Shown piece after piece: positions 21,174 through 41,591 of a stretch of DNA of 46,892 nucleotides; position 1 is the stretch's first letter, and each line of letters opens with the position of its first letter. The notes beneath the pieces are model-generated. The model was not told the origin of the DNA. It did no database searches and was given only the letters and a program-made list of their open reading frames with translations. This DNA is from Chloroflexota bacterium (GTDB lineage Bacteria; Chloroflexota; Dehalococcoidia; UBA2979), in the NCBI GenBank assembly GCA_002707835.1, contig PANZ01000004.1, forward strand, positions 1 through 46,892, given 5' to 3'. Position numbers and translations under genes: made by a program.

Positions 21174-22265
21174 ATGACAGCTGAACATGATGATAATCGT
21201 CGAATACTTGAACGTTTATCAAATGCACTGGGCCCAACAGGATTTGAAGGACCGGTACGAGAAATTGTGAGAGAAGAACTTGAATTAGTAGTCGATTCAA
21301 TTGGAAATGATGGATTAGGATCAGTTATCTCAGAATTAAAAGGTGCTTCTTCTTCTCCACGCATCATGTTTGCTGCACATATGGATGAATTGGGGCTAAT
21401 GGTTCGAAGAATTACCCCAGAAGGGTACATAAAAATTCAACCTTTAGGTGGTTGGTTAGATCAAGCATTGATTAACCAACGTTGGATTATACTCACACGT
21501 GAAGGTGAGGTTCCTGGTGTGAGTGGTATTAAAACTCCACATGTAATGTCTCAAGATGCACGATCGAAAATATTTAAGCGTGATGACATATTTATCGATG
21601 TGGGTGCAAGTTCAAAAGAAGATGCTGAAGATCGCTTAAATATTCGTCCTGGTGATGCAATCGCACCAGCATCATATTTTCAAGAAATGGAAGGTAATTG
21701 CCTATATATGGGCAAAGCTTGGGATGATCGTGCCGGAGTTGCAGTAATGCTGCAAACTATAAAAAGATTAAAGCAATTAGGTCATCCCAATACTGTTTAT
21801 GGAGTTGCAACTGTACAAGAAGAAGTTGGACTAAGAGGTGCTCAGACAAGTGCATTTGCAGTATCTCCGGATATAGGTATCTCTCTTGAATCAGGTGTCG
21901 CTGGAGACTATCCAGGTATTACTGCTGATGAAGCTCAAGAATTAGTTGGAAGTGGCCCAGGTATTTTCCTTCATGACTCTTCGATGTTACCTAATAACCG
22001 CTTACGTGATTTAGTTGTGGATATCGCCCAAGATCTTAATATCCCTTTGCAGTTCAATGTTTTAAGTGGGTATGGGCAAGATGGTGCAGCTATACAGAAA
22101 ACAGGTGCTGGTGTCCCTGCGATTAATGTGACAGTACCGACACGATATTTACATAGTCATACCGGAGTAATCCATCGAGATGACGTTGAAGGTGCTATAC
22201 AACTTATGGTGGAGCTAGTCCGGCGTCTGGATGACATGACTGTTGAAAAAATAAAGCAATTTTAA
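21174..22265 (+). CDS. M42 family metallo-aminopeptidase (FrvX / glutamyl aminopeptidase-like)
   Basis: FAAHMDELGLMV, KAWDDRAG and VQEEVGLRGA motifs of the M42 family. Confidence 0.88.
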   Translation: MTAEHDDNRRILERLSNALGPTGFEGPVREIVREELELVVDSIGNDGLGSVISELKGASSSPRIMFAAHMDELGLMVRRITPEGYIKIQPLGGWLDQALINQRWIILTREGEVPGVSGIKTPHVMSQDARSKIFKRDDIFIDVGASSKEDAEDRLNIRPGDAIAPASYFQEMEGNCLYMGKAWDDRAGVAVMLQTIKRLKQLGHPNTVYGVATVQEEVGLRGAQTSAFAVSPDIGISLESGVAGDYPGITADEAQELVGSGPGIFLHDSSMLPNNRLRDLVVDIAQDLNIPLQFNVLSGYGQDGAAIQKTGAGVPAINVTVPTRYLHSHTGVIHRDDVEGAIQLMVELVRRLDDMTVEKIKQF

Positions 22266-22283
22266 ATAAGAAATAACTAATTA

Positions 22284-25200
22284 TTACCAAGTATCAATAT
22301 AGGGTCTTTTCTTATTAGTCCGTTTTGGAACAGGTGGGAGACTACGTAACCCGTTGGCAATCCATCTCCGTGTATCTGCAGGATCAATAACATCATCGAT
22401 ACCAAAATAGATTGCTGTATTTACCGCTTTAGCATTTTCATATTTTTCAGCAACCATTCTTTCATAAGCATCTATTCTTTCATCAGGATTCTCTATGGCA
22501 GCAAGATCGTCGCGATATCCAAGTTTTACAGCCCCTTCAATATTCATTCCCGCAAATTCTGCGGTTGGCCATGCAACAGTGAAAAATGGCACTAAAGAGC
22601 TAGCTCCACACATCGCTTGCACTCCTAGTCCATATGATTTTCTTATTACGATACCAAACATGGGGACGGACAAATTAGCCCCAGTGTTAAACATTCGTGC
22701 ACAGTGTCTGACTAAAGCCGTTCTTTCAACTTCAGGACCTACCATCATGCCTGGACAATCCATCAAACTAATAACAGGAAGATCGAAAGCGTCACATAAT
22801 TGAAGGAATCTTGCTCCTTTATCTGCTCCGTCACTATCGATAGCACCTGCAAGATGATGAGGGTTGTTTGCGATTAACCCGAGAGGTTTTCCTTCTATGC
22901 GAATGAAACAAGTAATAATCCCTACACCAAAATTTTCTCTGATTTCAAGGACTGAATCTTTATCGGCTAATGTTTTTATTATTTCCCGCATGTTGTACAT
23001 GCGTAGACGATTTTCAGGCACTATGTGTCGCATTGATCTTTGATCTGATTCCTCCCAATTTTCAATAGATCCTTGAAAGTATGATAAATATTTTTTTGCA
23101 ACACTTGTGGCTTCAGTTTCATCTTTGACAAGAATATCGACAACTCCATTTGGAACTTGAAAAGACATAGGTCCAACTTCTTCCGGTGTATAAACACCTA
23201 AGTTGCCTCCTTCAATCATGGCTGGTCCGCCCATTGCAATAGTCGAGTTCTCTGTTGCGATAATTACATCACAGCAGGCAAGTAGTGCGGTGTTTCCAGC
23301 GAAACAGCGCCCTGAATTGACGCCTACTAAAGGCACTAAACCACTAAGTTTTGAAAATTGTGTGAATGTGTAGGTATCAACTGCAGCGCTACCTTCTCGT
23401 CCTGTATCACCAGGTCGTCCACCACCACCTTCAGAGTACAGAATCACAGGAAGCATGTATCGATGAGCAAGGTCGTACATACGGTCTTGTTTATAGTGGT
23501 TGCGATTACCTTGCGTTCCTGCAAAAACTGTGTAGTCATAATGCACTGCAATGGATCTCGCATTTTCTTTGCCAACTAAATCTTCATTGATTTGACCTGT
23601 CCCAGCCACTAAACCATCAGCAGGAGTTCGTTCACGTAGCCATTGTTCCGTCCTACGTGAACGCTGTGCTGCTACTACTAAAGGACCAAATTCAGTAAAT
23701 GTATCTGCATCGAATAGATCACTTAAATTTTCCCGTGCTGTACGTTGTCCTTTTGAGTGTCTACGTTCAACTGCGTCAGGTCGATTTTCATCAAAAATAT
23801 ATGATCGACGTTCATTAAGTTCCTCCAAATCGGAACGAATGAAATCGAGGTCGATATTATCATTAGAACCTTCATATTCATCTGTGCTGTCTATTTCCTC
23901 CACGTAAATTAGTGCAAAACCTTCTCGAATGACATCTCCTATTGATATATGTACTTCTCGTACAATACCTGAACAACTTGCTTCGATGACATGTTCCATT
24001 TTCATAGCTTCCATTACTGCTATGGGTTGTCCTTTTAAGACTCGATCTCCCTCTGCAACATTAATTTCTAAAATGGTTCCTTGAATTGGCGCAAATATTC
24101 CTTCAACACCTTCAGTATCAATTGACTGACTTGTGTTCTGTTGTACTTCATTTGTTTGCAGATTTTGTGAATGTTTTACAGCTGCATCGTGTGCAAAAAG
24201 CGCTAGGGGATCTTTGCTTTCAATTTGTGCTCCCGCAAATCCAGTATCATTCTCGACCTTTGCAGTTGTATTGATTGAATATCGTTGTTCGATCAATGCT
24301 GAATTTTCAACTAATTCCTTTATGTTTTCATCAATAAAGCGTGTGTAGAAATTACCAGTTATAAAATCTTGGTGTTTTAGGATTGTTTGTAAAAATTGAA
24401 TATTGGTGGTGATTCCTTCTATTCGAAATTCATTGAGTGCTCTAAGTGATTTTGCTGCTGCTTTTTCAAATTGTGAGGATTTCGAATGGATGATTAGCTT
24501 TGCTAGTAGAGAGTCAAAAGATGGACTTGTTTCATAACCTGTGTAACCAAAACCATCTACTCTAATTCCCGGTCCCCCTGGTATGTCGTAGGCAGTTAGT
24601 ACTCCACCTGATGGTCGAATATTTCCATTATTATCGAATGCTTCCATATTGACTCGAGTTTGAATAGAGTATCCCGTCGTAGTGATATTTTTTTGTTCAT
24701 CCAAGCCAAGATCCTTGAGGCTTACGCCCTGTGCAATATGAAGTTGCGATTGGACAATATCTACACCAGTGACTTCTTCAGTGACAGTATGTTCGACTTG
24801 AAGACGTGCATTAGCCTCTATAAAAACGAAGGGCTCTCCTCCTTCATCAGAATTAGTATTTACCAAAAATTCAAAAGTTCCTAAACTTTGGTAATTCACT
24901 TTTTTTGCAAACTGTACAGCGGCGGTACTAATTTTTTCTCTTAATGCTTCAGGAAGATATGGTGCCGGTGCGATTTCAATTAATTTTTGGTGGCGTCGTT
25001 GCACACTACATTCTCGTTCACCTAGATGTATTATTTTACCAGTATGGTCACCAATGATTTGTACTTCTATGTGTCGAGCCCTAGGTAAAAATTCTTCGAT
25101 ATATAAGTCTTCATTTCCAAAAGCAATTCTTGCCTCAACTTGACAGCTCTTAAATGCACTTTCAAGCTCAGCTAAATCAGTTACTGCACGACTCCCTCGC

Positions 25201-25697
25201 CCTCCTCCTCCAGCCATTGCTTTGATCATTACAGCAGGATTTGATCCTAATGATTGAAAAAATTCAGAAGCTTCTTCTAATGTTATTGAGTGACTGATTC
25301 CATTTAGGGTGGGGATGCCAATTTCTTTGGCTGCAGCAATTGCCTGACCTTTATTACCAAACAATTCTAAATTCTCAATTGAAGGCCCTACAAAAACTAG
25401 ACCTTCTTCTTTACAGCGTTGTGCGAACAGAGAATTTTCAGACAAAAACCCATAACCTGGATGAATTGCATCACATCCATTAATTTTTGCTTGTTCAATG
25501 ATGTTTTCAATATTGAGATAAGCAGTGGCCCCTTTTTCTTCTAATGAAATTGAGTTATCAGCAGCTTGAGTATGTATTGAATTAGCGTCATCAGTCGAAA
25601 AGATTGCTGTAGTTTTTATTCCTATGTCTTCAGCTGCACGGATTATTCGAATAGCTATTTCACCACGATTTGCGACTAGTAGATTTGAAAGCACCAT
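22284..25697 (-). CDS. single-chain biotin-dependent acyl-CoA carboxylase (biotin carboxylase + BCCP + carboxyltransferase fused, LCC-like)
   Basis: The first ~450 aa form an ATP-grasp biotin carboxylase (MAGGGGRG, EANARLQVEHTVTE). The biotinyl domain has AVMEAMKMEH (Lys codon at 24000-24002). The C-terminal ~520 aa form a crotonase-fold carboxyltransferase (AccD/PccB-like). AAGGAAA RBS. Confidence 0.92.
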   Translation of the reverse strand: MVLSNLLVANRGEIAIRIIRAAEDIGIKTTAIFSTDDANSIHTQAADNSISLEEKGATAYLNIENIIEQAKINGCDAIHPGYGFLSENSLFAQRCKEEGLVFVGPSIENLELFGNKGQAIAAAKEIGIPTLNGISHSITLEEASEFFQSLGSNPAVMIKAMAGGGGRGSRAVTDLAELESAFKSCQVEARIAFGNEDLYIEEFLPRARHIEVQIIGDHTGKIIHLGERECSVQRRHQKLIEIAPAPYLPEALREKISTAAVQFAKKVNYQSLGTFEFLVNTNSDEGGEPFVFIEANARLQVEHTVTEEVTGVDIVQSQLHIAQGVSLKDLGLDEQKNITTTGYSIQTRVNMEAFDNNGNIRPSGGVLTAYDIPGGPGIRVDGFGYTGYETSPSFDSLLAKLIIHSKSSQFEKAAAKSLRALNEFRIEGITTNIQFLQTILKHQDFITGNFYTRFIDENIKELVENSALIEQRYSINTTAKVENDTGFAGAQIESKDPLALFAHDAAVKHSQNLQTNEVQQNTSQSIDTEGVEGIFAPIQGTILEINVAEGDRVLKGQPIAVMEAMKMEHVIEASCSGIVREVHISIGDVIREGFALIYVEEIDSTDEYEGSNDNIDLDFIRSDLEELNERRSYIFDENRPDAVERRHSKGQRTARENLSDLFDADTFTEFGPLVVAAQRSRRTEQWLRERTPADGLVAGTGQINEDLVGKENARSIAVHYDYTVFAGTQGNRNHYKQDRMYDLAHRYMLPVILYSEGGGGRPGDTGREGSAAVDTYTFTQFSKLSGLVPLVGVNSGRCFAGNTALLACCDVIIATENSTIAMGGPAMIEGGNLGVYTPEEVGPMSFQVPNGVVDILVKDETEATSVAKKYLSYFQGSIENWEESDQRSMRHIVPENRLRMYNMREIIKTLADKDSVLEIRENFGVGIITCFIRIEGKPLGLIANNPHHLAGAIDSDGADKGARFLQLCDAFDLPVISLMDCPGMMVGPEVERTALVRHCARMFNTGANLSVPMFGIVIRKSYGLGVQAMCGASSLVPFFTVAWPTAEFAGMNIEGAVKLGYRDDLAAIENPDERIDAYERMVAEKYENAKAVNTAIYFGIDDVIDPADTRRWIANGLRSLPPVPKRTNKKRPYIDTW

Positions 25698-25720
25698 AGA
25701 AATTTCCTTATATTATTTTC

Positions 25721-28141
25721 TTAATTTTCCTGAGAAGTTTCATATAACGTCCCGGTAATTCTATCTTTGACTAATTCCTTATACCTTTGTATCCCGATAT
25801 CTAATTCTTGTAAAAAAACCTCTTGACTATGTTCTCCAACACAGGGTGATGGTCTAATACCTGGATTAGGTGAATGTGATAATTTCCAAGGTCGTAAAGG
25901 TAAATAAGTTGGACCTGTCTCAGGATGGTCGATTTCTTTGATAAACCCTCTGTCTAGAGAGGATTTACTTGGACTACTATAAACTTCATATAAAGGGACC
26001 ACACGCGCGGCAGCAATTCCAAGTTCACATAGATTATTCTCTAAGATTTTAGCATCTTGTTGAATAGTCCAATTCTCGATTAACAAATCTAAGCTCTTTT
26101 CATTTTTTTTACGATTTCGCATGCTGTTAAATTCAAGGTTTTTCAAATGAGGTATATCGGTGAATTGTACAAATTTTTCCCAAACATTGTCCGATTCAAT
26201 TGCTATTGCGATCCATTCATTATTCGTTGTTGGGTAAATATTATGAGGAGATATTCGAGGGTGGTGGTTGCCTTGGGGTTTTGCAATCGATCCTAACCCA
26301 TCATATTCAGCTACGGCATCTCCACATACTGTAATCATTGCTTCCAACATCGATAGTTCAATTCTTTGAGGTTTATTAATTATATCGCGCTGATATAAAG
26401 CTCCTATCACTGAACCTGCAAAATAGTAGGCAGCTACTGAATCTGGGTAGAGCCCTCCTGTATTCATACCGGCCTCATTTTCATATCCATGAATAGATGA
26501 CAAACCGGACATGGGCTCAATAGTGGTACCTATACCAGGGAAATCTTTATAAGGGCCATATGCTCCATATGATGAAATTGAAGCATAAATAATTTTGGGG
26601 CAAACTTCCTCAAGTTTTTCTAATGTAATACCCCAGCGTTCCATTACATTTGGTCTAAAATTATCTGCGAGAATGTCGAATTTTGGTAACATCTGCCAGA
26701 ACATCGACAGACCTTCTTCTTGTGATAAGTCAAGAGTAATTGCTCGTTTGTTCAGGTTTACAGAATTATAAAGACCTTGAGTATTTAGAGTGTGTTGTTT
26801 TTTGGCAGGATCTTTTATACCAGCCGGAATTGTGTCACGAGTACGCCGCCATACATCTTGTCGGTCGACTGTTTCAATTTGGATAACATCTGCACCAAGT
26901 AGTCCTAGTAGTTCAGTTCCAAAAGTACCCGACCATGCCTGTCCAAAGCTAAGTACACGAACTCCATGCAAGGGACCTTCTGAATGTGATGCGTTTTTTA
27001 CTGTTTGAGTTTTTTTTGAATTATTCGGGGATACACGTTTGAATGTCGAAGTATGTTGCCCGTGTTGAGGTGCTGATTTCTTCAGCTCCCAACTTACAGG
27101 AGTTGATTTTGTCCAGGCTCCTGGCATACGAATAGATTTGTCTAGTATAGAAGTTGTTCTTAAGAAATCACGTTGTTCTAGGTGCGGATTCTCAATGATA
27201 TCTTTCATATCTTGTACAACTCCTGAAACACATCTAAGTTCTGACAGGGCATGAAATAAGGGCCAACGTTCTAAATTGAAGAGCTCACGCGCTGCACCGG
27301 CTCGAACTGGGTCCAAATCTTTTGCATGTCGTCCTATATCTGGCACTAAATCAGGATGATCTGCGAATTCAGGAAGATTAAGTATATCCATTGCCTTTTG
27401 CCAATGATGCCAATCACCAAATGCTAAGGCTATCTGTCCGTCTGATGTTGAAAATAATGGATGAGGCTCTCCTCTTTGTCGTCCACCAGCGGGTCCATAA
27501 GTTGATCCAATACCTTGATATACCGCTGCTACTCCCCAAGGATGGACGGTAAGTGAGAATGCATCAAATTCACTGACATCTGCTAATTCATATGTTGGTG
27601 ATTGATCCTTTCGAAGTAATGCAGCGCTCGCTACCATGAAGCCGGCTATTCCAGCTATGTATCCGCTTTGTCTATTAGGCATCTGCAAAGGTGACTCATC
27701 TAGGTAGCCGTTGATATAGGCCCATCCAGTTCGTGCACTGTGAGTAAGATTATTACCAGAGACAGATGATAATTCTCCTTCGAGTCCGTGCGGTGTAATC
27801 GAAAGATGGATGGCGTTACTTTTTAATGATGCAATTAAATTTTGTAATTCTAAACTGATGGGGCTTGCCGTAGTAATAAGTATATCTGTTTGTGAAACGA
27901 GTTCGTTAATTTCATCAAGTCGCTCGTAAATTAAGGATGATTTGTTCCAATTAACATAGTTATGTAGAAGGCTATTTTCTTTTCCAGCTTCATTGTTTAT
28001 GAATGGAGGTTCATGTCTTAATGAATGTCCGAAATTTGATTCAGCTAAAATTACATCTGCACCGAGATCCCCAAACATTCTTGCAGCATAAGCTCCTGAG
28101 AGTCGGTCAGATAAATCTACGACACGTATATTTGTGTAAAT
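25721..28141 (-). CDS. tandem-fused double family III (CaiB/BaiF) CoA-transferase; start codon uncertain (first canonical ATG at 28078)
   Basis: Two complete family III modules joined by a low-complexity linker (…HGQHTSTFKRVSPNNSKKTQTVKNASHSEGPL…). The second module starts GVRVLSFGQAWSGTFGTELLGLLGADVIQIE. The matching start of the first module (NIRVVDLSDRLSGAYAARMFGDLGADVILAE) extends in frame upstream of the ATG at 28078. ATT at 28141 with AGGA 8 nt upstream is my best guess for the start. Confidence 0.8.
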   Translation of the reverse strand: MYTNIRVVDLSDRLSGAYAARMFGDLGADVILAESNFGHSLRHEPPFINNEAGKENSLLHNYVNWNKSSLIYERLDEINELVSQTDILITTASPISLELQNLIASLKSNAIHLSITPHGLEGELSSVSGNNLTHSARTGWAYINGYLDESPLQMPNRQSGYIAGIAGFMVASAALLRKDQSPTYELADVSEFDAFSLTVHPWGVAAVYQGIGSTYGPAGGRQRGEPHPLFSTSDGQIALAFGDWHHWQKAMDILNLPEFADHPDLVPDIGRHAKDLDPVRAGAARELFNLERWPLFHALSELRCVSGVVQDMKDIIENPHLEQRDFLRTTSILDKSIRMPGAWTKSTPVSWELKKSAPQHGQHTSTFKRVSPNNSKKTQTVKNASHSEGPLHGVRVLSFGQAWSGTFGTELLGLLGADVIQIETVDRQDVWRRTRDTIPAGIKDPAKKQHTLNTQGLYNSVNLNKRAITLDLSQEEGLSMFWQMLPKFDILADNFRPNVMERWGITLEKLEEVCPKIIYASISSYGAYGPYKDFPGIGTTIEPMSGLSSIHGYENEAGMNTGGLYPDSVAAYYFAGSVIGALYQRDIINKPQRIELSMLEAMITVCGDAVAEYDGLGSIAKPQGNHHPRISPHNIYPTTNNEWIAIAIESDNVWEKFVQFTDIPHLKNLEFNSMRNRKKNEKSLDLLIENWTIQQDAKILENNLCELGIAAARVVPLYEVYSSPSKSSLDRGFIKEIDHPETGPTYLPLRPWKLSHSPNPGIRPSPCVGEHSQEVFLQELDIGIQRYKELVKDRITGTLYETSQEN

Positions 28142-28247
28142 AGTTATAATCCTGTCAAAAGTTAATATATTATGTCTTTTTATAGCAAAACTGAGAGAAA
28201 TGTATAAGGGTTTGCTTGTTTTGCAGAAGATTTGGTGGTGACATAAA

Positions 28248-29222
28248 GTGCGAATCCATAACGTACAAGTTAATCGTGTTGTTGATTTTCCTATGATTAC
28301 TCCAAGTAGCGATTCTAGTATTGGTACTAATATACAAGGCCCTTCAGTAATAAAGGTTCCTGAATGGATTAAGAATCCTTTAGGTGCCTATTATCTTTAC
28401 TTTGCAGATCATAAAGGGAGTTATATTAGGCTGGCTTATGCAGATAATCCTTTGGGACCGTGGGCAATTTATTCTCCCGGCAGCCTTCAGCTCTCTGAAT
28501 CTTGTTTCCTTACAGAGGCACCAGAAATTTCTCCAGAAATGCTCAAGGAATATGAACTGCGCAGACAAGGTGCAGCGATATCTCATGATTTGTTAACGGA
28601 AATAAGTACCCCGCATATTGCATCACCAGATGTGATTGTGGATTCTTCAAATAAACTAATCCTAATGTATTTTCATGGGTTAGAATCTGCTGGTAATCAA
28701 GTATCACGCTTAGCATTTTCGGATGATGGGATTTCATTTCGTGCGAGATCAGCGATCCTTGGACGTACTTATATGCGAATTTTTAAGTATGAAGGTGAAA
28801 CTTACGCTCTTTCTATGCCCGGACAGGTGTATAAATCAGCTAACGGTCAGGATGATTTTAAAGAAGGCCCTTTGTTATTTAATCCTAATATGCGTCATTC
28901 TGCTGTTTTAGTACGTGATAACGTTCTTTTGGTTTTTTGGACTCAAGTAGGTGATATTCCTGAAAGTATACTGTTAAGTCGTATAGACCTAACGAACCAT
29001 TGGATGGACTGGCAAGCAGAAGATGCTATTGAATTACTTCATCCTGAATTTGATTGGGAAGGAGCTAATGCTCCTTTAGTTCCATCGGTGCGAAGTACAG
29101 CTTACGGGCATGTCAATCAATTGAGAGATCCAGCTATCTTGGTAAATAATGATGAAGTCTTTTTATACTATGCAATCGCAGGTGAAAGTGGAATCGCTGT
29201 AGTTAAGATAGAAATTGACTAA
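28248..29222 (+). CDS. hypothetical protein, possibly a five-bladed beta-propeller glycoside-hydrolase-like fold (GH43/GH32 clan)
   Basis: Repeated beta-strand-rich pattern with acidic motifs (HIASPDVIV, QLRDPAILV, IAGESGIAVV) reminiscent of clan GH-F/GH-J. GTG start 7 nt after GGTGGTG. The fold assignment is tentative. Confidence 0.35.
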   Translation: MRIHNVQVNRVVDFPMITPSSDSSIGTNIQGPSVIKVPEWIKNPLGAYYLYFADHKGSYIRLAYADNPLGPWAIYSPGSLQLSESCFLTEAPEISPEMLKEYELRRQGAAISHDLLTEISTPHIASPDVIVDSSNKLILMYFHGLESAGNQVSRLAFSDDGISFRARSAILGRTYMRIFKYEGETYALSMPGQVYKSANGQDDFKEGPLLFNPNMRHSAVLVRDNVLLVFWTQVGDIPESILLSRIDLTNHWMDWQAEDAIELLHPEFDWEGANAPLVPSVRSTAYGHVNQLRDPAILVNNDEVFLYYAIAGESGIAVVKIEID

Positions 29223-33609: not shown

Positions 33610-33724
33610 TATGCCTCTATCTCTAATATTTATCTAATATACCATGATTTGCATCAAGATATTTTCTTCAGTTTTTGATATGATGCCGCTAAATAGCACT
33701 GCTTTTTAGCTGAGAGAGAATTTG

Positions 33725-35434
33725 ATGACTACTACTACGAAGAGCAATTTTACGGATAGTGCCAATAATCTGTATGCATCTCTTGAAGAAAAAGTTATGG
33801 ATCGTGATCAAGTTGGTGCTAGTAATGTTTTCTATGAATTATTGAGGCAAGGACGTCCATTAAATGAGATGATTCGTGAAACTGTTCGTATCCACGCTCC
33901 GTATACTCATACACCCTTCCATCAACGTATTGATAATGGCGTTGTCAGATTTGTTAATAATGATCATTGTTTACTTAGCGCTCGTGCAAGTTGGCGTATG
34001 CCAGATTTCTTACCAGAGCGATTAAAATTTCTACCGATGGCACAGACGATTTGGTATGTACCAACTGGTCTTGATGTATGGAATCAATTACTCGGACGTG
34101 CACCTGGCCATTATGGCCGACGAGTCTATGATGAAGCGAAATTTCCTGAACCTCCTCTTCCTGAAGCGCACTGGGAGGACAGTGATGCTATGGATATAGA
34201 GGGATCACTTGATGAACGCCTTAATTATTGGTTGACATTGGTTCAATACAGCAAAGCTGAAGAGTCTTACGCTGTTTTCCGTGGTTTATTAAAAAATGAA
34301 AAAGATCGTCCACAAGTATTCGCTCATCTTATGTTTGCTGGACTTATCGATGTCCAAGATCGCATTTTGTATAACCGTAGTTACACCACAGGGCATAAGT
34401 CGTATCGAGCACGTGCCACAATTGAATTATCTAGTGCAGTTGGCTGGGAAAAAGCACACGACGTAATATATGCTGGAGTTCCTGATATTGCTGTTGGTCC
34501 ACACTGGTACTCTGCTTATGAAATGGCATGTGAGGTTGAGAAAAATTTTCTTGAACTGAATCCTCCAACTTCATCGTTGGCTCCTACACTTGTTACTACT
34601 ACTGATAGTAATCTTTTTGCGCAAGAAACAGATTTGTCACATGCGGAACAAGCAATGTTAATGCGTTCATTGTTAGAAGAAGTAGAACCTTCATACATTG
34701 AAGCTATTATCGGATTGTTGAAATCTGGAAAGTCCCCACAAAAAATACTCGATGCAATTCAAATTGCTGCTGCAGAAATTGTGCTTCGATGTGGGACACC
34801 ACAAAGCTTTTCAATGCCTCAGCATGGTTATGAATATACGAATACTCTTTCTTGGTTTTATGCTAATTTCCAGCATCCTCACAAAACAAAATTACTTTTT
34901 GTGGCGGGGTCTTTTATCAATCAGTGTGCGATGTTAATAAAGAACACTCCTGGTAATGGTCGTCCAACTTTTACTCCTCCTCAAGCAGCAGATGCTCTGT
35001 CCAAAGAAAAACTGTTGTCACAACTTGATGCTGCAATCACAGCACTACAACCTGATGAAGCAGCGTCCTGGACACAAGCTTACTTAGATGCCGGACACGA
35101 AAGAAGATCTTTGGTTGCGACCCTTACTTTTGCAGCTGCTAAGCAGGGCAATGATCCACATAATCAAGAAATTGGATTATGCATGATTGAAGATTATGCC
35201 CGTACCAGTTCTCCTTTACGAGATCGATTGTTATTGGCTTGTGCAAAACATACTGCTGGTCATATTAAATATGGCAATCCTATGGAATCGTACAGTCGTT
35301 TTGCTAGTGAATTTGATCTGCCTTCGACTACAGATGTAAACGGTCAGGCTGAGCCTTTCGAAGCGCTACTAGACGAATTGGAGGAAGTTCCATTGGAAGA
35401 TATTGAATCTACACCTCCAAGGATACAGTTATAA
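33725..35434 (+). CDS. hypothetical protein (569-570 aa, soluble, His-rich motifs, no recognised family)
   Basis: Long intact ORF with a GAGAGAGA RBS. It stops 4 nt before the malate synthase G start. No TM segments or known motifs recognised. Confidence 0.6.
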   Translation: MTTTTKSNFTDSANNLYASLEEKVMDRDQVGASNVFYELLRQGRPLNEMIRETVRIHAPYTHTPFHQRIDNGVVRFVNNDHCLLSARASWRMPDFLPERLKFLPMAQTIWYVPTGLDVWNQLLGRAPGHYGRRVYDEAKFPEPPLPEAHWEDSDAMDIEGSLDERLNYWLTLVQYSKAEESYAVFRGLLKNEKDRPQVFAHLMFAGLIDVQDRILYNRSYTTGHKSYRARATIELSSAVGWEKAHDVIYAGVPDIAVGPHWYSAYEMACEVEKNFLELNPPTSSLAPTLVTTTDSNLFAQETDLSHAEQAMLMRSLLEEVEPSYIEAIIGLLKSGKSPQKILDAIQIAAAEIVLRCGTPQSFSMPQHGYEYTNTLSWFYANFQHPHKTKLLFVAGSFINQCAMLIKNTPGNGRPTFTPPQAADALSKEKLLSQLDAAITALQPDEAASWTQAYLDAGHERRSLVATLTFAAAKQGNDPHNQEIGLCMIEDYARTSSPLRDRLLLACAKHTAGHIKYGNPMESYSRFASEFDLPSTTDVNGQAEPFEALLDELEEVPLEDIESTPPRIQL

Positions 35435-35438
35435 AAAT

Positions 35439-37622
35439 ATGAATGAAAAATACGTTGATATAGCAAACCTCAAAGTTGCTGAACCACTGTACCAGTTAGT
35501 TGATGAAACTATTCTTCCTGGGTTAGAAATTTCAAGTAATCAAGTTTGGAAATTACTTAGCCAGCTTGTCACAGATTTAGGGCCTCGTAATCAAGATCAC
35601 TTAGATTTACGTGATGATCTTCAAAATCAAATTGATGAATGGTTAAAAATCTCTGCCGATAATAAGTTCTCTGAAGAAGACTCGTTGACATTTCTTCAAT
35701 CAATAGGATATTTGGTTCCTGAGGGTCCAGATTTTCAAGTTGTAACTACTAATGTCGACACAGAAATTGCCCATTTGGCAGGACCACAACTTGTTGTTCC
35801 TGTTGATAATGCTCGTTATGCATTGAATGCAGCTAATGCTCGTTGGGGGAGCTTATTCGATGCACTATATGGCACTAATATTATTTCTGAAAATAATGGA
35901 GCTGAAAAAACCTCTGGGTATAATCCAGTGCGAGGCGAACAGGTAATTACATACGTTAATATTTTGTTGGATGATATTATTCCAATACAAAATGCCCTAT
36001 GGAATGATGTGCGTTCATTTGCAGTGCAAGATTCCAAACTTTCTTTCGTAATGTCCGATGGATCGCTTGCCAGTTTAGTTGATCCTGAAAATTTTGTTGG
36101 CTATACAGGAGATCTTAGTAACTTATCAAGTGTTTTATTTCAACATAATGATTTACATATTGATTTGCTTATCGATCCTCATGACCCTGTAGGGGCCCAG
36201 CATTCTGCATCAATTAAAGATGTGATGTTGGAAGCTGCAGTAACTACAATTATGGATTGCGAAGATGCTGTTGCTGCAGTTGATGCAGAAGATAAAGTTA
36301 ATGTCTATGCAAACTGGTTAGGTTTAATGAAAGGGACTCTAGAGACAACTTTTATCAAAGCGGATGAAGAAATTATCCGAACGCTGAATGATGATCGAAG
36401 TTATACAGCCAGCGATGGTTCTGAAATAACACTTTCCGCTAGAAGCCTCATGTTAATTCGACATGTCGGAGCTCACATTTATACAGATGTAGTCACTACT
36501 GAATCTGGTGCATTGATCCCTGAAACTTTCTTAGATGCTGTCATTACTATTTTGGCATCTATACATGACATCAATAATCAGGGATTTTTGAAGAATAGTC
36601 TTCAGAAGAGTGTCTATGTTGTAAAACCAAAACAACATGGTCCTGATGAAATTGCCTTATCTGTAGAATTGTTTGAACGTATTGAAGAAGCTTTTGGTAT
36701 TGAAAGCGGGACTGTAAAAATTGGGATAATGGATGAAGAACGTCGAACTACTTTAAATCTTAAAGAATGTATTCGTGCTGCAAAAGATCGAGTAATTTTC
36801 ATTAATACTGGTTTTCTCGATAGAACAGGCGATGAAATACATACACATATGCATGCAGGCGCAATGATTCCAAAACCTGACATTAAATCTGCACGTTGGA
36901 TGGTTGCATATGAAGATTGGAATGTGGATATAGGGATTGCGACAGGACTTGCAGGAAATGCTCAGATAGGGAAGGGTATGTGGGCTCAACCTGATGAAAT
37001 GTTAGCGATGCTTGAAACTAAACATGGGCATCCCTATGCAGGTGCTAGTTGTGCATGGGTTCCATCTCCAACTGCAGCTACTTTACATTCTATTCACTAT
37101 CACCAAACCTATGTCCGTGAAAGGCAACGTATTATTGCAGATCGTACTCACGCTTCAATAAATGATTTACTTTCTCCGCCTTTACTAAAAGATCAAATAC
37201 TTAGTTCTGAAGATATTCAAAATGAGTTGGAGAACAACTTACAAGGAATTTTAGGATATGTTGCTCGTTGGGTAGAACAAGGTATTGGATGTTCTAAAGT
37301 TCCTGATATTAATGACGTAGGATTAATGGAAGATCGCGCAACTTTACGTATATCAAGTCAGCATGTGAGTAATTGGTTGTTACATGGGCTTATTGATGAA
37401 AATCAAGTATTGAAAACTATGGAAAAAATGGCAGAAGTTGTCGATCGACAAAATATTGATGATGCAGGATACACACCAATGGCCTCTGATTTTGAGAATA
37501 GCTTTGCCTTTCAAGCTGCTGTGGCATTAATTTTTGAAGGTAGAGAACAGCCGAATGGATATACAGAACTTTTGTTATGGAAGTATCGAAAAGCATATAA
37601 AGCTAATACCTTAATTGATTAA
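35439..37622 (+). CDS. glcB: malate synthase G
   Basis: Collinear with E. coli GlcB along the whole length (GPQLVVPVDNARYALNAANARWGSL, MDCEDAVAAVDAEDK, GIMDEERRTTLNLK, INTGFLDRTGDE, AWVPSPTAATLH, GCSKVPDI...MEDRATLRISSQH). The ATG at 35439 gives a 727-aa protein. Confidence 0.97.
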   Translation: MNEKYVDIANLKVAEPLYQLVDETILPGLEISSNQVWKLLSQLVTDLGPRNQDHLDLRDDLQNQIDEWLKISADNKFSEEDSLTFLQSIGYLVPEGPDFQVVTTNVDTEIAHLAGPQLVVPVDNARYALNAANARWGSLFDALYGTNIISENNGAEKTSGYNPVRGEQVITYVNILLDDIIPIQNALWNDVRSFAVQDSKLSFVMSDGSLASLVDPENFVGYTGDLSNLSSVLFQHNDLHIDLLIDPHDPVGAQHSASIKDVMLEAAVTTIMDCEDAVAAVDAEDKVNVYANWLGLMKGTLETTFIKADEEIIRTLNDDRSYTASDGSEITLSARSLMLIRHVGAHIYTDVVTTESGALIPETFLDAVITILASIHDINNQGFLKNSLQKSVYVVKPKQHGPDEIALSVELFERIEEAFGIESGTVKIGIMDEERRTTLNLKECIRAAKDRVIFINTGFLDRTGDEIHTHMHAGAMIPKPDIKSARWMVAYEDWNVDIGIATGLAGNAQIGKGMWAQPDEMLAMLETKHGHPYAGASCAWVPSPTAATLHSIHYHQTYVRERQRIIADRTHASINDLLSPPLLKDQILSSEDIQNELENNLQGILGYVARWVEQGIGCSKVPDINDVGLMEDRATLRISSQHVSNWLLHGLIDENQVLKTMEKMAEVVDRQNIDDAGYTPMASDFENSFAFQAAVALIFEGREQPNGYTELLLWKYRKAYKANTLID

Positions 37623-39073: not shown

Positions 39074-40339
39074 TTATTTGAATGATAGCGGATCGTTTGC
39101 TGTTACTCCAAGTGCGGCTAACTCTGTTATCTCTTCTTCAGACATACCTGCTACTTCACGTAATACTTCTTCAGTATGTTCACCTAAAAGTGGTGCAGGT
39201 AATTGTGTTGCTCCTGGTGTTTTCGAAAATTGAAATGGTCGACTTAAGTAGGGGCGTGAATCAGATGGTCCACGTCCGCTATATTCCCAAAACCCACTAC
39301 TTACTAATTGTGGATCATGTACTAATTGCTCTCCGGAGTTCACCACTCCTGCAGGAACGTTTGCAAGTTGCAGGATTTCCATAGCAATAAACGCATCCTT
39401 TTGACTTGTCCATTGAGCTATATGTTGATCAATTTCATCATGATGCTCACGTCTTCCTTCTGTATTAGTAAAACGTGGGTCATTTTCTAATACTGAATTG
39501 TCCATACATTGAGTAAGTGCTTTCCAATCGTCGTTATTTTCCACGCTTATGGATATCCACTTGTCATCTCCAAGACATGGATAGATACCTTGTGGAGCAA
39601 ATGTTCGATGACGGTTCCCTATAGGCACTTGAATATTATTGTTCATCGTATAGTCCATGACCATGTCACCAAGAATGGATGATGTCATTTCACGTTGTGA
39701 AAAATCGATATAAACACCCTTACCAGTTTCTCGATGTTGGCGAATTGCACTAAGAACTATTCCTACCGATGCTACCGCTACAAGAGGATCAGGGAACAAT
39801 ACTCCAGAAGTACTTGGATCACCCCCCAGATATCCTGTAATTGAAGCTACTCCAGCTGTTTGCTCCAACGTTACTCCAAAGGATCCATATGCTACTTCTG
39901 GGCCAGTTGCACCTTGACTACCTAAAGTCACCATAATTATGTCCGGCTTAATTTGCCGGAGATCTTCATAACTTAAACCAAATCGTGCCATTACACCTTG
40001 TCTATAATTTTCGATGACAACATCTGAATTCATTGCTAAGCGTTTAAATGCGTCGACACCTCGTTCGTGGGTGAGATCGAGACATATATTCCGCTTGCTA
40101 CGATTTCGATCTAAATATCTTCCTGTTCGGTCCCAAGGCTTATCAGTGGGTTCATTATCGAGATACATTCCTTGGTCTATCTGTGGGTTATGTGCATCAC
40201 CACGTGCAATATCCATACGCCTAGCAGATTCTACTTTAATGATGTCAGCACCTAAGTCACCTAAAATTTTCGTACATGTAGGGCCTGCCCAGACTTGGGA
40301 TGGGTCAAGTATGCGTATGCCTTCAAGTGGTAAGTTCAT
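39074..40339 (-). CDS. family III (CaiB/BaiF) CoA-transferase
   Basis: GIRILDPSQVWAGPTCTKILGDLGADIIKVE N-terminus. Candidate catalytic Asp in LFPDPLVAVASVGIVLSAI. AAGGAA RBS. Confidence 0.9.
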   Translation of the reverse strand: MNLPLEGIRILDPSQVWAGPTCTKILGDLGADIIKVESARRMDIARGDAHNPQIDQGMYLDNEPTDKPWDRTGRYLDRNRSKRNICLDLTHERGVDAFKRLAMNSDVVIENYRQGVMARFGLSYEDLRQIKPDIIMVTLGSQGATGPEVAYGSFGVTLEQTAGVASITGYLGGDPSTSGVLFPDPLVAVASVGIVLSAIRQHRETGKGVYIDFSQREMTSSILGDMVMDYTMNNNIQVPIGNRHRTFAPQGIYPCLGDDKWISISVENNDDWKALTQCMDNSVLENDPRFTNTEGRREHHDEIDQHIAQWTSQKDAFIAMEILQLANVPAGVVNSGEQLVHDPQLVSSGFWEYSGRGPSDSRPYLSRPFQFSKTPGATQLPAPLLGEHTEEVLREVAGMSEEEITELAALGVTANDPLSFK

Positions 40340-40364: not shown

Positions 40365-41591
40365 TTAGACTATGCCGCTATTTTTCATTTGATTAATTTT
40401 CTCGTTGTCCCATCCCAAAAGGGAACCATACACTTCCTCATTATGCTGTCCCAGTGTAGGTGCTGGTTTAAGATCCCATTGATCACCTCCCCATTTCATT
40501 GGTAATCCTGGGTAGGTTAATTTTCCTGCAATGGGATGTTCGAGTTCTACAAAGTATTCTCTATGTTGATATTGAGGGGATTCAATCAAGTCTTTCGCAT
40601 CACATATATAACCCCATGTCATACCTCTTTCTTGTGAAGCATGGTAGAGGTCCTGTTTTTTCTTATCACTTGCCCATTCTGCTATAAGTGCTGTGATTTC
40701 ATCTTGGTTTTTTTCACGTGCATCCATATCTTTGAATTTTTCATCATGTTCAAGTTCTGGTCTTCCAATCATTTCACATACTCCTGGCCAGTCTGTTTGG
40801 CGGAGCGTGATTCCAACTTGCCCATCGGCAGTTTTATAGAGTGGGGAGGATGCTAGTCGGCGACCACGTTCTTTTCCAGTTAGGATGTAAGAGAGTCCTG
40901 AATACATTTGTGCCACACCTATACCAGCTTGCGCTGATACATCAACATGTTGTCCAACACCGCTGATTTCCTTATAGGTTGAGGCTACTAATGCTCCTGA
41001 GAAGCCTGATAATCCACAAAAATATTCTGCTGGTTCGCCACCTATTTGTAGTGGTTCCCTCGAAGGATCTCCAGTTACAAAGGCCAATCCTCCTAAAGAT
41101 TGTGCAGTTATATCATTCCCTCGGTAACCTTTATAAGGTCCAGTTTGACCAAAAGGCGAAAGTGAGACAAGGATTTTAGCAGGGTTAATTTGCTCAATTG
41201 CGGAATATCCAATGCCCCATTCATCCATTTTTCCTGGAAGAAAATTTTCGACAATAATATCCGCCCATTCAATCAATTGAGTGGCTATATCAATTCCTGT
41301 TTCATTATCGAGGGATAGTGTGATTCCTTTTTTGTTCATATTGAGATATAAGAATTGGCCACTTTTTTCTGGATGTGGAATATTGTCGATGAATGGTCCT
41401 CGTGAACGTGAAATATCTCCAGATTGAGGTGATTCAATTTTTATGACTTCTGCTCCCATTACAGCAAGCATTTTTGTTGCGATTCCTCCAGAGATGCCCT
41501 GTGAGAAGTCGAGTACTTTAATGCCATCTAAAGGTGAAGCTACGTTTGACAAGGTTTTTCCTTCCGTAAAATCATTAATTTTGGGCATCAT
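40365..41591 (-). CDS. family III (CaiB/BaiF) CoA-transferase paralogue (Glu at the position expected for the catalytic Asp)
   Basis: GIKVLDFSQGISGGIATKMLAVMGAEVIKIE N-terminus. The active-site segment reads GGEPAEYFCGLSGFSGALVAS. Confidence 0.88.
   Translation of the reverse strand: MMPKINDFTEGKTLSNVASPLDGIKVLDFSQGISGGIATKMLAVMGAEVIKIESPQSGDISRSRGPFIDNIPHPEKSGQFLYLNMNKKGITLSLDNETGIDIATQLIEWADIIVENFLPGKMDEWGIGYSAIEQINPAKILVSLSPFGQTGPYKGYRGNDITAQSLGGLAFVTGDPSREPLQIGGEPAEYFCGLSGFSGALVASTYKEISGVGQHVDVSAQAGIGVAQMYSGLSYILTGKERGRRLASSPLYKTADGQVGITLRQTDWPGVCEMIGRPELEHDEKFKDMDAREKNQDEITALIAEWASDKKKQDLYHASQERGMTWGYICDAKDLIESPQYQHREYFVELEHPIAGKLTYPGLPMKWGGDQWDLKPAPTLGQHNEEVYGSLLGWDNEKINQMKNSGIV

Follow-up and report, generated by a model that had tools for sequence, protein, structure and literature searches.

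A single-chain LCC/YCC-type acyl-CoA carboxylase encoded beside a two-domain CoA-transferase in a Chloroflexota genome

Results

Genes and domains at the carboxylase locus

We analyzed a 46,892-nt stretch of DNA from a Chloroflexota bacterium (contig PANZ01000004.1 of assembly GCA_002707835.1; hereafter the window), in which positions 22284..25697 of the minus strand carry a gene for a single-chain acyl-CoA carboxylase of the LCC/YCC family, LCC standing for long-chain acyl-CoA carboxylase. The gene is the sole open reading frame (ORF) of this interval, starts with ATG and encodes 1137 amino acids followed by a stop codon. Immediately upstream on the same strand is a gene for a two-domain family III (CaiB/BaiF-type) CoA-transferase (25721..28150), and all coordinates given below for the two genes and their parts are on the minus strand. 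The family is already known and the window enzyme is an ordinary member of it; what we consider worth keeping is a coupling, supported across phyla, of LCC genes with enzymes that activate acids, either a CoA-transferase or an AMP-ligase.

An earlier interpretation made by a model from the letters alone (the sequence-only reading) had claimed that all three functions of a biotin-dependent carboxylase lie on this one polypeptide. Mapping with Pfam bore this out, in the order biotin carboxylase (BC), biotinyl domain (BCCP) and carboxyltransferase (CT), and the three models proposed for such a check, CPSase_L_D2, Biotin_lipoyl and Carboxyl_trans, all matched. The ATP-grasp BC domain occupies residues 1-464 (24306..25697; PF00289, PF02786 and PF02785), with matches to Biotin_carb_N at residues 4-109 (E = 3.9e-40), CPSase_L_D2 at 116-328 (E = 6.9e-61) and Biotin_carb_C at 346-457 (E = 1.1e-31). 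The biotinyl domain with its EAMKME motif spans residues 530-600 (23898..24110; PF00364, Biotin_lipoyl, at 539-597, E = 1.3e-13), and the CT domain residues 646-1119 (22341..23762; PF01039, Carboxyl_trans, E = 3.2e-74). All five matches far exceed the curated cut-offs, and the length of 1137 amino acids fits the size of LCC/YCC proteins, about 1050-1150. The codon of the biotin-attachment residue, Lys566 (AAA), computes to 24000..24002, exactly where it had been placed before. In the BC domain we found the Gly-rich loop MAGGGGRG at residues 161-168, ERECSVQRRHQK from residue 227 and NARLQVEHTVTE from residue 296, and in the CT domain EGGGGRPGD from residue 756 and MDCPGMMVGP from residue 979.

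Conservation was assessed over 120 homologues, which are the listed 90%-identity clusters from a protein search (1130-1154 amino acids, 100% query coverage, 61-100% identity), mainly metagenome-assembled genomes (MAGs) of Chloroflexi/Dehalococcoidia, with Gammaproteobacteria as well. Lys566 is invariant, and the catalytic-motif residues of BC and CT are mostly invariant or nearly so; the variable residues in the BC motifs are Met161 (0.01), His236 (0.09) and Val232 (0.69). The CT domain is the most conserved domain (mean identity 0.76), with BC at 0.58-0.60. Because the catalytic motifs and Lys566 are kept and the family match is clear, we regard the protein as an intact single-chain LCC/YCC carboxylase. 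The least conserved part, with a mean identity of 0.32 as compared with 0.58-0.76 for the domains, is the linker between BC and BCCP (residues 465-529, 24111..24305), which corresponds to the gap between two stretches aligned to the solved structure 4rcn. At 65 residues it is too short for a BT domain and it has no Pfam match; since the linker is both poorly conserved and without a domain match, the window carboxylase lacks a BT domain. At the other end, the protein closes with a basic tail of 18 residues (1120-1137, 22287..22340; PVPKRTNKKRPYIDTW), which is as conserved as the CT domain (mean identity 0.79).

Assignment to the LCC/YCC family

The top solved relative of the whole carboxylase is 4rcn_A, the LCC of Mycobacterium avium subsp. 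paratuberculosis (MAP), which aligned in two stretches, 4-464 and 530-1114 (E = 0, 1036 bits). The CT region alone scored 624 bits against 4rcn and 563 bits against 5fif, the CT of the Deinococcus radiodurans single-chain carboxylase (55.3% and 49.9% identity, respectively), as compared with 200-243 bits, and at most 243, against methylmalonyl-CoA decarboxylase, 12S transcarboxylase and PCC beta, and 104-123 bits against the beta subunits of MCC and GCC. From these sequence comparisons we assign the window carboxylase to the single-chain LCC/YCC acyl-CoA carboxylases, an already known family; its CT domain groups with the alpha-carboxylating, PCC-like enzymes and not with MCC or GCC. The LCC-type identification made from the letters therefore stands, with 4rcn as top relative over the full length and a specifically LCC/YCC-like CT domain.

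Other assignments were considered and rejected. Pyruvate carboxylase and AccC are the best-scoring NCBIfam names, all below their cut-offs and all covering the BC and BCCP parts only; the pyruvate carboxylase model NF009554 reached 636 bits against a cut-off of 965, with matches confined to residues 4-464 and the BCCP, and the C-terminal half is Carboxyl_trans. The gamma-carboxylating MCC/GCC enzymes of leucine and geraniol breakdown are set aside by the low beta-subunit scores given above and by the single chain in place of separate alpha and beta subunits. An analogy with leucine, geraniol and acetone-type carboxylations, which the sequence-only reading had drawn, is weak on the same scores (104-123 bits as against 624 for LCC) and because acetone carboxylase is not biotin-dependent. 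Eukaryote-type multidomain acetyl-CoA carboxylases (ACC) such as SACE_4237 are chains of ~200 kDa, whereas the window protein has 1137 amino acids and no central domain; the contrast, a large central non-catalytic domain in that type, is described in PMC6491548.

A neighbor-joining tree of CT domains separated two clades. Clade A comprises MAP LCC, the Deinococcus enzyme and proteins of Halopseudomonas, Burkholderiales and Acidimicrobiia, which are ~50-54% identical to the window protein, and clade B comprises the window protein with those of Dehalococcoidia and marine Alpha- and Gammaproteobacteria, at 58-69% identity. Ten positions of the CT domain tell the clades apart, some of them flanking conserved motifs: positions 979 and 981, beside a conserved Pro-Gly motif, give MDCPG in clade B and CDTPG in clade A, and positions 1046, 1049 and 1052, within a WPTxE motif, are Ala, Ala and Asn in clade B and Gly, Gly and Gly in clade A. 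At 1046 and 1049 clade B shares Ala with the 12S and decarboxylase sequences, and MAP has Gly. A possible correspondence of the PccB specificity position Asp422 to the Glu of a GPE motif in the window enzyme was weighed and set aside. For members of the family, carboxylation of C2-C16 acyl-CoAs with a long-chain preference is reported in the summary that PMC6491548 gives, citing Tran 2015, and biotinylation is documented for PA1400, the homologue in P. aeruginosa (PMC9894557).

Integrity and distribution of the fusion

An assembly chimera or read-through that joined separate BC-BCCP and CT subunit genes would produce the same apparent layout. The identical 1137-amino-acid protein recurs with unchanged gene order in independent projects (NCBI, ENA/Tara and Logan assemblies), on at least 22 contigs in all; these include contig DJZJ01000040.1 of MAG GCA_002450445.1, one Tara Oceans scaffold at ENA and one Logan assembly. 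Contigs from four independent marine metagenomes covered 22000-28300 contiguously at flat depth, with no coverage break between domains. In run X4 one 19-kb contig spans the entire region with zero differences; in the other three runs contigs end at differing places, and no end is common across runs at a domain junction. The only reported joint is a 1396-nt, 6x contig of run X3 whose sole contact with the region is two matches of 21-25 nt; we regard these as noise, due to chance or to a paralogue, and they lend the chimera no support. The same fusion is present, nearly always at full length, in the 120 listed clusters and in 80 species-level loci kept for comparison, and the solved 4rcn shares the single-chain layout. 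We consider the chance of an artefact to be negligible; the coverage break and the fusion confined to a single assembly, which had been named as the findings that would overturn the layout, are both contradicted by these data. Short pile-ups were seen at 23251-23284 and 25434-25466, where many unrelated metagenome and metatranscriptome contigs match and then diverge on both sides. The second of these encodes IHPGYGFLSEN, a universal biotin carboxylase motif, and the small bumps in depth arise because both segments are highly conserved and also occur in other carboxylase genes of the samples.

When each species was represented by one genome, a scan found relatives of the single-chain carboxylase in at least 583 species-level genomes. 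The 80 loci used in our comparisons were kept out of the at least 583 stretches that encode a relative, and they represent Dehalococcoidia/SAR202, Alpha-, Beta- and Gammaproteobacteria, Acidimicrobiia, Binatia and others. Matches over at least 80% of the length were also found in 74 plasmid or chromid records, with Deinococcus, Rhodococcus, Cupriavidus, Paracoccus, Tistrella and P. aeruginosa among the carriers. The sequence-only reading had called the layout rare, as does PMC6491548. Given its presence in these species-level genomes, full-length clusters and plasmid records, that label no longer holds and the fusion is common.

Tandem copies were also observed. A marine Pseudomonadales-type contig (L090, 10412-14424) encodes two carboxylase paralogues of 1096 and 1168 amino acids, 2 kb from an orthologue of the two-domain CoA-transferase, and a second contig (L091) is arranged alike, which suggests that functionally distinct LCC subtypes occur in one genome.

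The upstream two-domain CoA-transferase

The carboxylase had been placed 23 nt downstream of a fused double CoA-transferase, and the gap is exactly 23 nt (25698..25720; GAAAATAATATAAGGAAATTTCT), with an AAGGA Shine-Dalgarno-like element 7 nt before the carboxylase ATG. The upstream product matches CoA_transf_3 in two stretches (PF02515, E = 2.1e-118). As listed, its ORF runs over 25721..28078 with an ATG at 28078, and homology extends upstream to about 28150: the frame is open through 28078-28150, reads IITIYTNIRVVDLSDRLSG and IITIYTNIRVVDLSDRLSGAYAAR and fits the N-terminus of the orthologues of 796-856 amino acids, which start MxxPFEGIRVVDLSD. The ATT at 28148-28150 aligns with the Met of the orthologues. 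A 97%-identical relative (P0121) has been called from another position (MSDRLSG...).

The two halves of the transferase align with each other and with single-domain enzymes. We aligned both halves of four transferases (the window protein and three orthologues) with single-domain enzymes and located a column, which from established knowledge of family III CoA-transferases we take to be that of the catalytic Asp, in which Asp is found in all C-terminal halves (Asp546 in the window protein, codon 26441..26443) and in two of three single-domain family III CoA-transferases. Every aligned N-terminal half has Gly in this column (Gly139 in the window protein, codon 27662..27664, and likewise in the three orthologues). 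Since only the C-terminal half retains the catalytic Asp, the transferase is predicted to be a fused pseudo-dimer with one live site, and its N-terminal domain an inactive pseudo-domain. The top solved relatives of the putatively active half are the benzylsuccinate CoA-transferase subunit BbsF (9fn0_B, 1.7e-48) and YfdE (1.2e-42), and the HMMER alignments to both take in the Asp546 stretch. Two-domain family III CoA-transferases are a recognized class, studied only for DddD and PtmU4 (PMC6006322). The window holds two further family III CoA-transferase genes, single-domain and in tandem, at 39074-40339 and 40365-41591 on the minus strand; in the 408-amino-acid member Glu replaces Asp in the catalytic column (GGEPAEYFCG).

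The carboxylase and transferase genes are both represented in marine metatranscriptomes by fragments at least 99% identical to them, and RNA contigs of two runs cross the 23-nt spacer (X26, 25638-25798; X27, 25671-25837). A scan of 25698..25720 on the minus strand found no terminator-like hairpin, and a promoter scan returned fewer promoter-like sites than shuffled sequences, with none in the intergenic regions. Co-transcription of the two genes fits these data, because RNA contigs span the spacer and a hairpin is absent from it.

Coupling with acid-activating enzymes

Neighboring genes were clustered by an all-against-all comparison of 1262 ORFs from the 80 loci and the window. The two-domain CoA-transferase is the only widely conserved neighbor, present at 31 of 81 loci and within 600 bp at 27 of them; 14 of these transferases lie upstream on the same strand and 10 are convergent downstream. 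No other conserved neighbor emerged from this ORF clustering across the 80 loci and the window. Full-length orthologues of 42-53% identity lie 21-461 nt upstream of the carboxylase in Dehalococcoidia, Phenylobacterium and marine Gammaproteobacteria; at two more loci the upstream distance is 1.5-2 kb. When any family III CoA-transferase is counted, one lies no more than 2.5 kb from the carboxylase at 38 of 80 loci, and the density of such genes is 1.23 per 10 kb within that distance as compared with 0.11 further out at the same loci, an enrichment of ~11-fold. Among large neighbors within 1 kb, a Pfam scan to which 11 known transferase orthologues were added gave CoA_transf_3 for 27 of 99, MFS_1 for 4 and AMP-binding for 1. 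Starting instead from the exact proteins of five transferase orthologues, we found an LCC nearby for two, one with an LCC 57 nt downstream and one with two tandem LCC paralogues 2 kb away; a reverse metagenome scan with the transferase gave two near-identical loci only. We conclude that the link between LCC and transferase is frequent and not obligate.

Annotated records of cultured bacteria usually show an AMP-forming ligase in place of the CoA-transferase. An AMP-binding (acyl-CoA ligase) gene overlaps the start of the carboxylase gene in D. radiodurans and lies directly upstream of it in Tistrella. Paracoccus has two AMP-binding ligases upstream with an ABC transporter between them and the carboxylase, and Pseudosulfitobacter has a ligase directly downstream followed by a TRAP transporter. 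The order in R. opacus PD630 is CaiB/BaiF transferase, AMP-binding ligase, carboxylase and TetR; Haematobacter has a divergent two-domain CoA-transferase of 757 amino acids, and in P. aeruginosa a LysR regulator alone stands beside the carboxylase. The shared theme is an enzyme that converts an acid to its acyl-CoA, often joined in the cultured carriers by a transporter and a TetR or LysR regulator. A literature search found no description of a link between LCC and a CoA-transferase or between LCC and a ligase. Plasmid pRoPD630_1 of R. opacus PD630 (L095, 1-15756) carries a fuller candidate pathway around its LCC gene: in order, it has genes for an NDMA-dependent alcohol dehydrogenase, an aldehyde dehydrogenase, a 4-hydroxyphenylacetate-3-hydroxylase-like monooxygenase, the CaiB/BaiF transferase, the AMP-binding ligase, the LCC itself, TetR and an MFS transporter, with a separate CT and BC pair behind them.

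In the window itself, the genes around the pair encode SDRs, a zinc-dependent alcohol dehydrogenase, an aldo-keto reductase, an F420-type luciferase-like oxidoreductase, a nitroreductase, a molybdenum hydroxylase and malate synthase G, which are typical of SAR202-type oxidative catabolism and show no conservation alongside the pair. Recurrence of GMC oxidoreductase, MFS, RNase Y and similar genes is limited to closely related Dehalococcoidia genomes. Divergent from the transferase is an ORF of 324 amino acids (28248-29222, plus strand), which had one tblastn match among the 80 related loci and no match in Pfam or NCBIfam, and which is called beside the pair in three assemblies of the same genome; because it is unconserved next to the pair and has no family match, we exclude it from the system. 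A further plus-strand ORF of 570 amino acids (33722-35434) has no Pfam match, and its last 32 nt overlap the beginning of the malate synthase G gene (35403-37622).

Discussion

We think it probable that an active LCC/YCC carboxylase and a transferase that makes its acyl-CoA from a free acid together constitute a two-step module. This route, from acid to acyl-CoA to carboxy-acyl-CoA, is supported because an acyl-CoA-forming enzyme is the recurrent neighbor of LCC genes, and the two-step logic that the sequence-only reading had proposed gains backing from the same observation, be the neighbor a family III CoA-transferase or an AMP-forming ligase. By homology, the N-terminal ATP-grasp domain would carboxylate the biotin on Lys566 with ATP and bicarbonate, the BCCP would swing on flexible tethers to the CT active site, and the CT domain would pass the carboxyl group to an acyl-CoA at its alpha-carbon, so that a malonyl-CoA derivative (2-carboxyacyl-CoA) is formed; the assembly is probably a CT-cored hexamer like 4rcn. 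As the gene context suggests, the transferase most likely forms the acyl-CoA out of a free carboxylic acid at no cost of ATP; the CoA donor may be succinyl-CoA or the carboxylated product. Where other LCC operons encode an AMP-forming acyl-CoA ligase, that ligase would carry out the acid activation, and the marine clade would use the ATP-independent CoA-transferase instead. The pair is carried by a marine Chloroflexota genome, probably of SAR202 type, in which genes for oxidoreductases and CoA-transferases abound.

Several observations weigh against the two-step module. By its CT sequence the window enzyme belongs to a clade that is sister to that of the characterized enzymes; MAP LCC and the D. 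radiodurans YCC are both of clade A, none is of clade B, and because of this placement and the ten diagnostic CT positions the substrate range of the characterized enzymes is not transferable to the window enzyme. CoA transfer could run in two directions, so that the transferase either provides the substrate or recovers CoA from the product. The pairing is facultative, with roughly half of LCC loci having no CoA-transferase nearby, and the co-occurrence across genomes that had been proposed as a check held in the forward comparison and gave a mixed picture in the reverse look-up, where three of the five transferase orthologues had no LCC within 6-8 kb. The Poisson P of 2e-29 for the transferase enrichment is overstated because the compared loci are phylogenetically related. 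SAR202 genomes have large expansions of CaiB/BaiF CoA-transferases (PMC5395668), and because such genomes hold many paralogues, including two more in the window, some adjacency by chance is expected. The RNA contigs that span the spacer are few and shallow and could reflect carry-over of DNA. Finally, ATG, GTG and TTG are absent from the upstream stretch of the transferase gene (28078-28150), so that there is no canonical start at the ancestral position; either the transferase uses a non-canonical start codon or its putatively dead N-terminal domain lacks the first strand.

A different view is that the carboxylase is a housekeeping acetyl- or propionyl-CoA carboxylase, making malonyl-CoA for fatty acids or methylmalonyl-CoA from propionate, and that the transferase is incidental or serves succinyl-CoA:propionate transfer. 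Characterized LCCs also take acetyl- and propionyl-CoA, according to the account in PMC6491548; the next CT relatives after LCC/YCC are methylmalonyl-CoA decarboxylase, 12S transcarboxylase and PCC beta, with which, for the first two, clade B has the Ala residues at 1046 and 1049 in common where MAP has Gly; and an adjacency by chance is conceivable in SAR202 genomes, rich as they are in CoA-transferases (PMC5395668). However, the family is patchy and often borne on plasmids or chromids, paralogues occur in tandem at one locus, and a separate BC and CT pair adjoins the LCC gene in R. opacus. The family also accompanies the ligases, transporters and TetR/LysR regulators typical of accessory catabolic operons, conventional PCC/ACC are reported in SAR202 genomes as well (PMC5395668), and adjacency to the transferase is enriched ~11-fold. 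On balance we find a housekeeping role unlikely. Still less credible to us, and decidedly improbable, is that the transferase acts like DddD, as a transferase/lyase that turns a betaine or sulfonium acid into an enoyl- or 3-hydroxyacyl-CoA, which is perhaps reduced and then carboxylated. DddD is the best-characterized two-domain family III CoA-transferase (PMC6006322) and the top Swiss-Prot match of some SAR202 CaiB-like proteins (PMC5395668), and the window transferase likewise consists of two domains, the second of which holds the predicted catalytic Asp. Yet DddD has been placed as an outgroup to other two-domain transferases (PMC6006322), BbsF and YfdE, to which the active half is closest among solved proteins, are plain transferases, the partner in other LCC operons is a simple ligase, and ddd-type neighbors (a BCCT transporter, DddB/C) are absent from the gene annotations of the window.

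Returning to the two-step module, we speculate that LCC and the two-domain transferase could form a self-contained, ATP-sparing module for acid carboxylation, widespread in marine heterotrophs (SAR202 Chloroflexota, marine Pseudomonadales and Rhodospirillales), in which the product or succinyl-CoA donates CoA to the next acid; we hold this extension to be rather doubtful. If it is true, CoA would be catalytic and the net reaction would be acid plus bicarbonate plus ATP to a substituted malonate or a methylmalonyl-type intermediate, with a specific substrate class for clade-B LCCs and incorporation of bicarbonate during the breakdown of refractory acids in the ocean.

Besides the cross-phylum coupling, the apparent existence of an abundant, expressed marine clade B paired with a seemingly half-dead two-domain CoA-transferase is worth keeping. 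The partner enzyme, transporter and regulator of cultured carriers (Deinococcus, Rhodococcus, Tistrella and Haematobacter) offer a handle for finding the acid, and the pathway in R. opacus gives a tractable cultured system in which to look for the substrate. What this adds to ocean carbon cycling is modest, namely one more expressed and predicted bicarbonate-consuming step in SAR202-type catabolism.

Among known systems, MAP LCC (4rcn) is most like the window enzyme, with BC, BCCP and CT on one chain without a BT domain, a full-length match at E = 0 and a CT domain 55% identical. The absence of BT from 4rcn is read from an 18-residue gap between the aligned stretches, and the window linker is ~47 residues longer. 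MAP LCC differs in belonging to clade A, whereas the window enzyme belongs to the clade of marine Dehalococcoidia and Alpha- and Gammaproteobacteria, with ten CT substitutions between them; the window enzyme has the conserved basic C-terminal tail and the two-domain CoA-transferase partner. The D. radiodurans YCC, a single-chain carboxylase reportedly described by Hagmann et al. in Structure in 2016, with structures 5fif for CT and 5h80 for BC, has the same architecture, a CT domain 50% identical and a gene that comes straight after that of an acyl-CoA-forming enzyme. It differs in that this partner is the overlapping AMP-binding ligase and not a family III CoA-transferase, and in belonging to the other clade. 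PA1400 carries the EAMKM biotinylation motif, as does the window enzyme (PMC9894557). Two-subunit carboxylases (PCC, actinobacterial ACC and the mycobacterial AccA3/AccD4/AccD5 LCC complex) perform the same chemistry with homologous BC, BCCP and CT domains, the window CT scoring 200-243 bits against PCC beta and 12S; their subunits are separate, with a BT domain on the alpha subunit and in some an epsilon subunit (PMC13012033), and the mycobacterial LCC complex shares only its name with the window enzyme. The window transferase is like DddD and PtmU4 in its two tandem CoA_transf_3 domains, of which the C-terminal one alone has the predicted catalytic Asp, and it differs from them in that the ddd or ptm gene context is absent and its nearest solved relatives are ordinary transferases.

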